NCBI GenBank assembly: GCA_964644695.1
Contig: CAZXWN010000001.1
Coordinates: 62,001-118,868 of the forward strand
Direction of reading: 5' to 3'
Source: an uncultured bacterium
GTDB taxonomy: Bacteria; UBP4; UBA4092
DNA length: 56,868 nt
The translations under genes and the position numbers were made by a program. The first letter of the stretch is position 1, and every line of letters starts with the position of its first letter. Of the stretch, positions 2,479-6,385 are shown in pieces. The notes under the pieces were generated by a model. It saw only the letters and a program-made list of their open reading frames with translations. It was not told where the DNA came from and did no database searches.

Positions 2479-3666
2479 ATGAGTGTTAAATTTATACTTT
2501 TAAATTGTAATGAATCAGAAACGCTTCCCATTATAAATTCACTGGATAGAAATGACTATGAAATTGAAATGTTTAGTAGCATTTCGGAGATAGTCTCAGT
2601 ATATGACAGTAGTTTAACGGGAATAATTCTCTTTAAAAGTACACAGTTTAGTTTTGATGAGTTGGTTAAATCTTTTCCACACTGTTTATTTCTTATCCAG
2701 GAAAGTGGTGGAGATACTTTTAATTATCCGGGGATTCCAATAGACAAAGAGTTATGGGAAGAGAAACACTCTGAAATATTCTCTCAACTGATAAACAACT
2801 TATGGATGTCGCATCAGCTATATGTTCAATCTACCCGTCAACGTGATGATATTCTAAATTCGCTGCCTGAAGGTACTTGTTTACTTGACTTGCAGGGAAG
2901 AATTCAAGTTATTAACCAGATTTTGGCTGAACGAATGGGGAAGTCAGTCAATGCTCTGGTAGGTGTTAATTTTTATAATACAATGAATCCAGAGACGGCA
3001 AGCAAATTCAAAACAATGGTTATGAAATGTCACCAAACAAAAGAATGTGTGCATTTTAATGATGTGTTTGGCGGAAAAAAATGGACGGTATATTTACAAC
3101 CCCTCTTTAATTCTAGTGGCGTGATTGATAAAACGTGCGTTATTTATCGTGATATTACGGAAATTCACAAAACGGAAGAAAAACTGAAGACAATGAGTTT
3201 AGTAGATGAGGAAACGGGTTTGTGTAATAAAAGAGGTTTTTTGGCTGTTTCTGAGCCGTTCATTAAAGTGGCAAATCGCCGGAAAAAGCGGATTATTATT
3301 TTCATGATGAAGATTCCCAATATTTCCTGGATTAAAGAGGTGCATGGGGAGGAAATGGGAAAAAAATCAATAAACGTAGTTGCTAAATCATTGCGGAAAA
3401 GTTTTCGTGACTCAGATATTATTGCTCGCTGGAATGATGAGGTTTTTATTGTATTTGCTTTTGACACCCAGAATACTACATCTGAGCAATTGTTGAATCG
3501 ATTTAATGTAAACCTTGAAGCAGAACAATATCGTGACCCAGCAGGATTGAATTTTGCTCTGGATTATGGTTGTGCAGATTACGACCCCGATTTTCCAGAA
3601 ACCCTGAGTGAATTAGTAAATAATGCTGAAGCCGCGTTAAATGAATATAAGCACCACAAACGGTAA
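2479..3666 (+). CDS. PAS + degenerate GGDEF-domain protein
   Basis: PAS segment (ILNSLPEG...RDITE), then DEETGLCNKRGF and RDSDIIARWNDEVF. The GGDEF position reads NDEVF. ATG 2479 chosen to avoid overlap with the kinase. Confidence 0.8.
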   Translation: MSVKFILLNCNESETLPIINSLDRNDYEIEMFSSISEIVSVYDSSLTGIILFKSTQFSFDELVKSFPHCLFLIQESGGDTFNYPGIPIDKELWEEKHSEIFSQLINNLWMSHQLYVQSTRQRDDILNSLPEGTCLLDLQGRIQVINQILAERMGKSVNALVGVNFYNTMNPETASKFKTMVMKCHQTKECVHFNDVFGGKKWTVYLQPLFNSSGVIDKTCVIYRDITEIHKTEEKLKTMSLVDEETGLCNKRGFLAVSEPFIKVANRRKKRIIIFMMKIPNISWIKEVHGEEMGKKSINVVAKSLRKSFRDSDIIARWNDEVFIVFAFDTQNTTSEQLLNRFNVNLEAEQYRDPAGLNFALDYGCADYDPDFPETLSELVNNAEAALNEYKHHKR

Positions 3667-3679
3667 CAGGGTGTTTCTG

Positions 3680-4615
3680 ATGGGAAAACCAGAGTTTTGG
3701 GCATTAGTGGGACCTACAGGAATTGGTAAGACTTCTATTTCGATGGAGGTTGCAGATTACTTTAAGACACCCATATTGTCTGTGGATTCCATGCAAATAT
3801 ATCGTTACATGGATATTGGAACGGCTAAACCTTCTTTGGTGGAGCAAAAGAGAGTCCCTCATTTGTTGATTGATATCGTAAATCCTGATGAGCAATTTGA
3901 TGCCAATTCATTTCAAACTCTTGCATGGGAAATAATCAAAGACTTAAAAATAAAGAATCAAATCCCATGGCTGACAGGTGGCACTGGGTTTTATCTGAAA
4001 GCATTAACTGAAGGTCTTTTTCAGGGTGTGAAAATACCTGTTGAATTTAGAAATAGTTTATTACAGGAAACGAAGGATTGGAGTAATACTCAACTTTACG
4101 AGAGATTGGGTAAACTTGATTCTGTTGCCGCAAAAAAATTGCATTTCAATGATAGAAAACGGGTCCTGAGAGCTATTGAAGTGGCCGAATATACTGGCAA
4201 GCCATTGTCCCAGTGGCATATTGAACACCAGCAAACTAAAACGAAGGTGAATTCAATTGTTTATGGACTTCACCAGGAATTGCCCAACTTATATGAAAAA
4301 ATTAATAAGCGTGTATTATTAATGATGGATTCAGGTTGGATCGATGAAGTTTGTTCTCTTCGAGAACGTGGTTATTCTCAAGAACTGCAATCTATGCAAG
4401 GGTTAGGATATAAACGAATCAATCAATATTTAGATGGTTTGATAAAAAAAGATGAATTGGTGGGGTTGATATCTCAAGATACCCGGAATTATGCCAGGCG
4501 ACAGATGGTCTGGTTTCGAAGTGTCAAGAATATTCAATGGTTTGATGTTGATAAATATGACAAAACCTACATAATAGAGTCAATTATTAAGGACATTCAA
4601 AAAATAAATAATTAA
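3680..4615 (+). CDS. miaA: tRNA dimethylallyltransferase
   Basis: GPTGIGKT P-loop, DSMQIY, DIGTAKP, GGTGFY, TRNYARRQ; lies upstream of hfq. Confidence 0.97.
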   Translation: MGKPEFWALVGPTGIGKTSISMEVADYFKTPILSVDSMQIYRYMDIGTAKPSLVEQKRVPHLLIDIVNPDEQFDANSFQTLAWEIIKDLKIKNQIPWLTGGTGFYLKALTEGLFQGVKIPVEFRNSLLQETKDWSNTQLYERLGKLDSVAAKKLHFNDRKRVLRAIEVAEYTGKPLSQWHIEHQQTKTKVNSIVYGLHQELPNLYEKINKRVLLMMDSGWIDEVCSLRERGYSQELQSMQGLGYKRINQYLDGLIKKDELVGLISQDTRNYARRQMVWFRSVKNIQWFDVDKYDKTYIIESIIKDIQKINN

Positions 4616-4756
4616 ATCATTCATGGAAAAGGTTTGAACGAATATAGTTTATGTTATAAAAGGAATGGTTCTTTTTTGATATAATACGAAAACTGATTAT
4701 TGTTTTATATAATTCCCTTTTTTAGAGGGAATCCTAGTTTATTGTGGAGGTCTATA

Positions 4757-5068
4757 ATGATGGGCAAAGTACAAATGAATTTGCAGGACAGTTTTTTGAA
4801 TGCGGCAAGACGTCAGAATGTTCCGGTTACTGTGAAATTAACAGATGGAACAGAAGTTAAGGGAAAAGTGAATGGGTTTGATAATTTCACTGTTATTTTG
4901 GATGTAAATAAGATTCAATACCTCATTTACAAACATGCTATAGCGACATTGTACCCAGATCGTCCCCTGGAAAAACATCAAACGACCTTTCATTCAAACG
5001 ATCGTGAACGCAGTAATGTTTCTTCCAATGATTTAGAAAAATTCAAAACCAATATGGATACTAAATAA
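4757..5068 (+). CDS. hfq: RNA chaperone Hfq
   Basis: [30 protein letters not shown] at 4746-4750; miaA-hfq-hflX synteny. Confidence 0.97.
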
Positions 5069-5104
5069 AGTATCTATAGATATTGACCTTGGAGGCTATA
5101 AGCC

Positions 5105-6385
5105 ATCCGCGAAAAACTTATAACAATTAAAGATAATCGCCCCGAGCAAGCTGTATTAGTAGGTGTTCAATTACAGGGCATGAGTGCTGTTGATGCAGCC
5201 GAAACCCTGGATGAATTGGCCCAACTGACAGAAAGCGCCGGGGCTATTGTTTTAAATACGATTCAACAACGTAAATTCCGTCCTGATTCTGCTACTTTTG
5301 TTGGTAAAGGTAAGGTGGAAGAAATAAAGGCTTTGGTTGATATGACCGAAGCTGATGCTGTTATTTTTGATGAAGAATTAACTCCCGTCCAGCAACGAAA
5401 TCTTGAGACAGCGTTGGAAGTCAAAATCATTGATCGTGCGGAATTGATTCTGGATATATTTGCCCAAAGAGCAAAGACTCGAGAAGGACAAATGCAAGTG
5501 GAATTGGCCCAATTGCATTATCTATTACCAAGGCTTAGCGGTAAAGGGATTCTCTTATCCCGTCTTGGGGGTGGAATAGGGACTCGAGGTCCGGGTGAAA
5601 CAAAACTGGAAGTCGATCGCCGGCGGATACGTGACAAGATATCTACCTTAGAAAAAGCCATTGAAGAAATAAAAGAAAATCGGAAACAACAAAGATCACT
5701 TCGGAAACATACTGGGATACCTGTCATTGCTCTTGTGGGATATACGAATGCAGGTAAATCTACTCTTTTGAACCATATCTCTCACTCTGATGTCTTTGTC
5801 GAGGATCGTCTGTTTGCCACCCTAGACCCGACGACTCGGAAAGTAACACTACCCAATGGACAGGAAGCCCTCTTCACTGATACGGTTGGTTTTATCAGAA
5901 AACTCCCTCATCAATTAATTGCTGCTTTCAGGGCTACCCTTGAAGAAGTCGTTCAATCTGATTTATTGATTCATGTGGTGGATGTGTCGCATCCTCAGTG
6001 GGAAAAACAAATGGATTCAGTTGCTGAGGTTCTGAAGGAAATCAAGATTGGTGATAAATCCATTTTAACCGTATTTAATAAAATCGATGCTCTGACGGAC
6101 CTGTCTTCCATAGACCGATTAATCCATACTTACGATCCGGCGGTAGCCGTTTCCGCTTTAAACGGGAAGGGTATTGATGATTTTCTTGCATCAGTGGCTC
6201 GATATTTTGACCAGCGCTGGGTTCGTTTGACTCTATTGATTCCCCACGATAAATCCAATGTGTTGGCCGCTCTCCATGCGAATGAGAGAGTTCAGTCTAT
6301 CAAACATACTGATTCTGGAACTCAGGTAAATGTATTTATTCTTCGAGAGAGGGTAAAAAAATATAAACTCTTTGAGATATCATAG
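5105..6385 (+). CDS. hflX: Ribosome-splitting GTPase HflX; start probably ATC 5105, first ATG is 5180
   Basis: GGIGTRGPGETKLE, GYTNAGKS, LFATLD, DTVGFI, NKID. The HflX-like N-terminal strand EQAVLVGV is encoded upstream of the first ATG. Confidence 0.95.
   Translation: MREKLITIKDNRPEQAVLVGVQLQGMSAVDAAETLDELAQLTESAGAIVLNTIQQRKFRPDSATFVGKGKVEEIKALVDMTEADAVIFDEELTPVQQRNLETALEVKIIDRAELILDIFAQRAKTREGQMQVELAQLHYLLPRLSGKGILLSRLGGGIGTRGPGETKLEVDRRRIRDKISTLEKAIEEIKENRKQQRSLRKHTGIPVIALVGYTNAGKSTLLNHISHSDVFVEDRLFATLDPTTRKVTLPNGQEALFTDTVGFIRKLPHQLIAAFRATLEEVVQSDLLIHVVDVSHPQWEKQMDSVAEVLKEIKIGDKSILTVFNKIDALTDLSSIDRLIHTYDPAVAVSALNGKGIDDFLASVARYFDQRWVRLTLLIPHDKSNVLAALHANERVQSIKHTDSGTQVNVFILRERVKKYKLFEIS

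Follow-up and report, generated by a model that had tools for sequence, protein, structure and literature searches.

Near-cognate start codons are known from several bacterial genes. The classic case is infC, which is controlled by initiation factor IF3. In Staphylococcus aureus infC starts at AUA (PMC13009471), and pcnB of Escherichia coli is known to start at AUU. The same S. aureus source describes further non-canonical starts on cvfC1 (AUU), ccpN (AUA) and citZ (AUA), which are conserved, limit protein yield and are directed by extended Shine-Dalgarno (SD) motifs (PMC13009471). Such starts are inefficient, reaching about 10% of AUG in the S. aureus reporters used there (PMC13009471) and 1-2% of AUG for AUA, AUC, AUU and CUG in E. 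coli reporters, according to a preprint (10.1101/063800). IF3 discriminates against them, as stated in two sources (PMC13009471, PMC9723500). The S. aureus source does not mention hflX (PMC13009471), and a search of titles and abstracts, with supplements outside its reach, found no on-topic literature on a near-cognate hflX start; one candidate paper was set aside since, in the part available, it mentions start codons solely as coordinates of ChIP peaks (PMC7157823). Here, we describe the hflX gene of an uncultured sludge bacterium (GTDB lineage Bacteria; UBP4; UBA4092), carried on a window of 56,868 nucleotides (nt), the whole stretch of DNA that was analysed (GCA_964644695.1, contig CAZXWN010000001.1, positions 62,001 to 118,868 of the forward strand). 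Our analysis indicates that this gene is probably translated from an ATC codon at 5105 of the window, to give a full-length HflX of 426 residues that includes the first strand of its N-terminal domain.

The proposed coding sequence occupies 5105..6385 on the plus strand (426 codons plus TAA). When the forward frames of 4700-5500 are translated and read, the hflX frame is found to be interrupted upstream by TGA at 5084-5086 and closed by TAA at 5099-5101. After this TAA come GCC, the proposed start codon ATC (5105-5107) and then CGC GAA AAA CTT ATA ACA ATT AAA GAT AAT CGC, followed by CCC GAG CAA GCT GTA TTA GTA GGT GTT CAA TTA CAG GGC and the first canonical start, ATG 5180..5182. Throughout 5102-5179, ATG, GTG and TTG are all absent from the hflX frame. 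An SD element, GGAGG (5091..5095, plus strand), lies 9 nt before ATC 5105, and no other candidate start of the region has a computed duplex with the anti-SD sequence as strong as the one at this codon (-9.3 kcal/mol). The original prediction, that a frame closed by this TAA and devoid of canonical starts before 5180 is served by a clean SD nine nucleotides ahead of an ATC, is thus borne out by the letters themselves. So is its further statement that a short TTG open reading frame (ORF) overlaps the site out of frame: this ORF runs from 5089 to 5130 on the plus strand and has 13 codons plus TAA.

The stretch that precedes ATG 5180 has the features of HflX coding sequence. The stop-to-stop translation of the frame (427 residues) scores 480.5 bits against TIGR03156, the equivalog model for GTPase HflX (cut-off 216.75), with model positions 1-349 of 351 matching residues 16-367, so that the model starts 11 residues before Met27, the residue encoded by ATG 5180; the alignment to NF008280 begins earlier still, at residue 14. 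Pfam domains follow in the order GTP-bdg_N (PF13167, residues 34-121), GTP-bdg_M (PF16360, 123-201), MMR_HSR1 (PF01926, 209-327) and HflX_C (PF19275, 345-407). The translation contains GYTNAGKST, DTVGF and NKID, which correspond to the G-domain motifs (P-loop GxxxxGKS/T, DxxG and NKxD), and these columns are invariant in a 13-sequence alignment. HflX chains in the Protein Data Bank match the product at E 4e-104; the solved mycobacterial structures 8vio and 8vkw align from residues 10-13, and in E. coli HflX (5ady) chain residue 8 pairs with residue 14 here. An AlphaFold2 model built from the 13-sequence alignment (mean predicted local distance difference test score, pLDDT, 82.7) places strand 1 at residues 16-23 (QAVLVGVQ; codons 5147..5170, plus strand, 5' of ATG 5180) in a block with pLDDT 84-89, and on this model it is the first strand of the HflX N-domain sheet. 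A start at ATG 5180 would therefore remove strand 1, and the earlier suggestion that such a start cuts off a conserved HflX strand is backed by family models, solved structures and AlphaFold2 alike. The peptide that crosses Met27 of the stop-to-stop translation begins DNRPEQAVLVGVQLQGM. By its family name, 'ribosome rescue GTPase HflX', the product would be a ribosome-rescue factor.

Comparison with relatives points in the same direction. The phylum is represented in the collection by five species genomes, all kin to each other: that of the window (G000) and four others (G001-G004). The proposed start and the arginine codon behind it align across all five, reading ATC CGC in the window genome, ATT CGA in G001, ATT CGT in G003, ATC CGA in G004, where a TTG lies two codons 5', and TTG CGT in G002. 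A canonical start is missing between the 5' stop and the strand in three of the five (G000, G001 and G003), and in G003 none appears from the 5' stop until 45 codons beyond the strand start. The SD-like elements GGAGG (G000), GAGGT (G001) and AGGGT (G002) all stand at 9 nt, and the best anti-SD duplex of the region falls on the proposed codon both in G000 and in G001 (-7.0 kcal/mol in the latter). The proposed start and ATG 5180 are 25 codon columns apart, counting the start itself; compared over G000, G001 and G002, the three genomes of the family, nine of these columns keep the same residue through different codons and none keeps an identical codon. Retention of the residue while codons turn over is a signature of selection on protein.

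A second gene in the same genomes provides a precedent. In none of the five phylum genomes does infC have a canonical start ahead of the IF3_N domain; this domain begins 22 residues before the first canonical infC start. The infC of the window genome, which lies outside the window (L040:1480-1482, on contig G000:C1), most likely starts at ATC, to judge from an AAGGAGG placed 8 nt ahead of that codon; the corresponding arrangements are AGGAGG, 9 nt and ATC in G002 and AGGAGG, 9 nt and ATT in G001, with ATA in each of G003 and G004. The layout proposed for hflX is therefore demonstrably also in use in this organism on the classic IF3-controlled gene, and this strengthens the idea that hflX may be tuned in an IF3-sensitive manner.

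Near-cognate starts do not appear to be rampant in this genome. Of its 2518 putative genes, 607 keep the frame open for 12 codons or more ahead of the first canonical start, and these were ranked by the codon-usage log-odds of the stretch that precedes that start. hflX came 4th and infC, the positive control, 5th of the 607; a rank this high indicates that the feature is more than chance. The 40 best other candidates comprise 21 with an NCBIfam or Pfam match and 19 without any family match, and in none of the 21 does the model clearly start before the first canonical codon (L071 and L076 are marginal), from which we conclude, on this partial screen, that such starts are not widespread in G000. 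Four top-ranked candidates (L041-L044) were compared with relatives. In L043 the comparison shows the start to be canonical. The top-ranked candidate (L041:1-306, G000:C11:63580-63885) was also rejected: its only relatives, in G001, carry an in-frame TAA at two places, and it is likely to belong to a repeat or pseudogene family and not to be a gene start. In L042:1-144 (G000:C10:58492-58635) the 48 codons before the canonical start of a 393-aa ORF match a 652-aa frame of G002, and in G000 an in-frame TAA is preceded by further open frame; the gene appears to be interrupted, though a misassembly or a stop that is read through would give the same picture. In L044:1-93 (G000:C19:6328-6420) the 31 pre-start codons pair with a frame of 234 aa in G001, beginning at residue 1, and the match in G002 contains three TAA; another non-canonical start or a decaying gene are both possible. 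Another locus, L074:1-360 (G000:C3:196504-196863, minus strand), is a 120-codon frame that matches only the C-terminal half of DUF507 (profile 95-177 of 182), and is a split or half-size gene.

Weak starts on hflX recur well beyond this phylum. HflX was detected in 273 of 301 sampled genomes, and 5' ends were taken from 152 genome loci (30 + 22, and a further 100 fetched in rank order among the matches listed; 135 unlisted matches lie outside this set) together with three metagenome loci. Of the genome loci with a mapped strand among the matches listed, 134 come from other phyla, and 13 of these have no ATG, GTG or TTG from the 5' stop to the strand. Close relatives were absent from a metagenome scan with a single hflX protein, which returned just five distant loci (44-55% identity); in one of these, L035, canonical starts are likewise missing ahead of the strand. 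In a second, non-overlapping sample, in which the organisms are named, the same is true of 4 of 77 loci: those of a Chloroflexota metagenome-assembled genome (MAG), with AGGAGG 9 nt before ATA, a Gemmatimonadetes MAG, with GCGGAGG 5 nt before ATA, Ca. Heteroscilispira lomanii, and a Syntrophomonadaceae MAG that is ambiguous. With both samples pooled, the hflX loci outside the phylum in which the strand is reached without a canonical start number 17 of 211 (~8%). In most of them the best SD stands at an ATT, ATC, ATA or CTG that precedes the strand by 5-19 codons, as in L099 (AGGAGGGGAGG, 7 nt, ATC, duplex value -11.3), L103 (GGGGAGG, 5 nt, ATC, -11.7) and L133, where the codon is ATC and the next canonical one comes 32 codons beyond the strand start.

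The same pipeline applied to two control GTPase genes found no locus without a canonical start, either for der (0/70) or for obg (0/30). The difference between 17/211 and 0/100 gives p = 0.002 by Fisher's test, a value that is optimistic because the genomes are akin. Even where canonical codons are available the genes differ: among the 179 hflX loci that have a canonical codon no more than 35 codons from the strand, the one with the best SD is ATG in 86, TTG in 47 and GTG in 46, and ATG accounts for 63/70 in der and 27/30 in obg. The contrast of 17/211 with 0/100 suggests that hflX is under gene-specific selection for weak starts, as opposed to a lineage-wide sloppiness of initiation.

A further 23 hflX loci were flagged since in them the SD of a near-cognate codon is far superior to that of every canonical one (der 0/70); this class is suggestive but was left uncounted, the search span for hflX being 35 codons, longer than that for the control. 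The flagged loci (L324, L088, L323, L350, L114, L125, L276, L296, L322 and 14 others) do have a canonical codon close by, but an ATT, ATC or ATA placed 12-17 codons ahead of strand 1 has SD duplexes down to -13.5 kcal/mol, and the true near-cognate share among hflX starts may lie above the counted 8%. In another group the nearest canonical start is more than 40 codons before strand 1 (L010, L026, L029, L083, L123, L145, L156, L158, L167, L175, L178, L197, L200, L319 and L330); these loci have either N-terminal extensions or further missed starts.

A number of observations count against initiation at ATC 5105, or against its generality, and need to be set beside the evidence above. The phylum sample is just five related genomes, and the element is not uniform among them because G003 has no SD at all and G004 has a nearby TTG, which may be its true start. 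As to the expectation that related hflX genes would conserve an SD together with a weak codon, the weak codon aligns in five of five genomes (ATC or ATT in four, TTG in G002), and the SD is lacking in G003. The survey could place the strand in 142 of 155 and in 77 of 80 loci; the other 13 and 3, in which it lay outside the alignment, were dropped. Some of the cases there are ambiguous, L118, L349, L179 and L005 among them: L118 has an ATG with a good SD 18 codons beyond the strand start, L349 has neither ATY nor CTG, and a GTG or TTG falls within the strand in L093, L002 and L179. The efficiency of AUC as a start, as far as the available text of the preprint goes, was measured in E. coli reporters only (10.1101/063800). 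At the locus itself, ATG 5180 is the start in every public gene call, a partial SD-like AGGTG (5161-5165) lies 14 nt 5' of it, and a shorter isoform may be made from this codon.

All rival explanations together hold a minor share of the probability. The one that survives best is that translation begins at ATG 5180, which would give a 401-residue HflX without strand 1 and would make 5102-5179 an untranslated leader. This is the first canonical start, its duplex with the anti-SD sequence is -6.2 kcal/mol, and G002 also has ATG at the position. The product on record has 401 aa, as do seven of seven members of its 90% cluster, and this is the only form found in public protein collections by exact look-up and through that cluster, although such agreement merely reflects the gene callers. 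On the other side, the stretch that would be discarded shows protein-level conservation with synonymous turnover and coding codon usage, matches the HflX models and solved structures and forms the first N-domain strand. Moreover, the codon is GTA in G001, and in G003 a canonical start is lacking to beyond 45 codons past the strand start. AGGTG is far from its codon, in keeping with the earlier description of ATG 5180 as having only a weak SD-like sequence (-6.2 as against -9.3 kcal/mol). We regard a start at ATG 5180 as improbable.

Less probable still is initiation at another near-cognate codon, ATA 5120 or ATT 5126. Both are in frame and 5' of the strand, but neither has an SD (0.1 kcal/mol each), and their columns are not conserved, reading TTA...CTT GTT in G001 and TAT...CTG GTA in G002.

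Recoding, in the form of initiation at TTG 5089 (or after hfq, the gene upstream) followed by a +1 shift, or of stop readthrough, is very improbable. What speaks for it is that the 13-codon TTG ORF overlaps the site, that hflX lies in the +1 frame relative to it, and that an ATG ORF just as long, likewise out of frame, is seen in G001 when the sequences are compared by eye. However, the TTG of the mini-ORF overlaps the hflX SD and so has none to itself, and no slippery motif common to G000 and G001 was seen. In G002 the same frame closes, by eye, before the start codon and the hflX frame has a canonical TTG; hfq is in a different frame from hflX, and the stops TGA 5084 and TAA 5099 precede the ATC. 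The mini-ORF is probably irrelevant and non-functional. A programmed +1 frameshift of the prfB type was rejected in view of the missing SD at TTG 5089, the lack of a common shift motif and the early closure of the frame in G002. Leader-peptide attenuation was likewise set aside, there being no terminator-like site at 5068-5300 and the fold of 5060-5150 being no better than that of shuffles.

A sequence or assembly error, with ATG as the true codon at 5105, has only the prior plausibility of such errors in metagenome-type assemblies in its favour and is negligible, since contigs from three other studies read ATC and TAA and the codon that aligns with it in relatives is ATT or ATC. Specifically, Logan contigs of runs X3, X5 and X8 cover 5062-5250 and are identical over 5099-5107, so that the suspicion of a sequencing error at 5107, raised as a check in the original prediction, is not sustained; the comparison is one of contigs, in which rare variants are invisible, and run X6 does not cover 5062-5271. 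The sole difference in 5062-5250 is a strain polymorphism, 5117 C>T, in X3 and X8, which changes codon 5 from CTT (Leu) to TTT (Phe). Collectively, the HflX models, the solved structures, AlphaFold2 and the aligned codons of five genomes support translation from ATC 5105, as had been proposed from the letters of the window alone.

The gene stands third in the row miaA-hfq-hflX. miaA (tRNA dimethylallyltransferase; 3641..4615, plus strand; Pfam IPPT, E 3e-77) comes first, followed by hfq (4757..5068, plus strand; Pfam Hfq, E 3.2e-25), which starts at ATG 4757 behind GGAGG (4746-4750, 6 nt) and stops at TAA 5066-5068. From the hfq stop to the hflX start there are 36 nt, and neither promoter-like nor terminator-like sites were found between 5068 and 5105, which makes co-transcription of hfq and hflX likely as judged from the sequence. 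In the gap between miaA and hfq there is a promoter-like site at 4676-4703 and a terminator-like hairpin at 4712-4732 (ATTCCCTTT...AGAGGGAAT, with a T-rich tail); the count of promoter-like sites around 4676-4732 is not above that in shuffles. A weak, unverified small hairpin is predicted at 5091..5108 (plus strand), where GGAGGCU would pair with AGCC-A-UCC and so enclose both the SD and the start codon. It sits in the minimum free energy fold of 5060-5150 (z = -1.65 for the whole stretch, equalled by 12 of 200 shuffles), and no equivalent was seen by eye in G001. An explanation through RNA structure at the SD and start codon was rejected: the hairpin is small, and 5060-5150 folds no better than shuffles.

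If hflX is translated from ATC 5105, the following sequence of events can be envisaged. GGAGG (5091-5095), with its 9-nt spacer, would position the 30S subunit, and initiator tRNA would read AUC with a single mismatch at the third position, giving a product that begins fMet-Arg-Glu-Lys, presumably with fMet at the first residue. Low initiation efficiency is to be expected because ATC is a near-cognate start, and initiation would be held down by IF3 proofreading, as it is for infC. The cell would contain little HflX, whose gene is probably transcribed together with hfq, and more of it would be made, along with IF3, when IF3 becomes limiting relative to ribosomes. It is a matter of speculation that the splitting factor HflX and the anti-association factor IF3 share one sensor. 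A broader proposal is that hflX is the second translation-factor gene, after infC, on which weak or near-cognate starts have been repeatedly selected (TTG or GTG on roughly half of the bacterial genes sampled, and ATT, ATC, ATA or CTG with no canonical alternative on some 8%), and that the two form a small start-codon-fidelity regulon; this we offer tentatively, as an idea that may well prove wrong. Were it true, ribosome-splitting capacity (HflX) and the anti-association factor (IF3) would be set by the same IF3-sensed signal.

These results have significance for annotation as well as for regulation. The known public copies of this HflX lack strand 1, and the same is likely for other lineages in which hflX has no canonical start; structural and phylogenetic work on HflX N-termini therefore uses truncated models. 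With regard to regulation, a start codon subject to IF3 discrimination would tie the level of HflX to the state of the initiation machinery. The recurrence of weak starts on hflX merits a phylogenetic test.

Set against the described systems, the locus shares with hflX of E. coli K-12 (b4173) the miaA-hfq-hflX order, a weak start behind an SD and an alignable protein. The E. coli gene is annotated from TTG, with GAGGG at 8 nt, and E-Q-A-V-L-V follows 9 codons later. There the TTG is canonical and accepted by gene finders, whereas the ATC here is one step weaker. In Listeria, hflX-type resistance genes (hflXr) are under leader-peptide/attenuator control, and in both cases a short ORF adjoins the hflX start. 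Unlike hflXr, however, the mini-ORF here has no SD and is not conserved in G002, and the interval from hfq to hflX is free of terminator-like hairpins. pcnB, cvfC1, ccpN and citZ differ in another respect, since none of them encodes a ribosome-splitting factor. In start architecture the locus resembles infC, which likewise combines an AUY start, a strong SD and a spacer of 8-9 nt on a gene for a translation factor. The two differ in that the near-cognate start is far from universal for hflX, about 8% of the sampled lineages lacking a canonical start, and in that HflX is not IF3, so that there would be no direct autoregulatory loop and control would be exerted in trans by IF3. Near-cognate starts were already known from infC, from pcnB and, in S. 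aureus, from ccpN, cvfC1 and citZ, and hflX is an added case.

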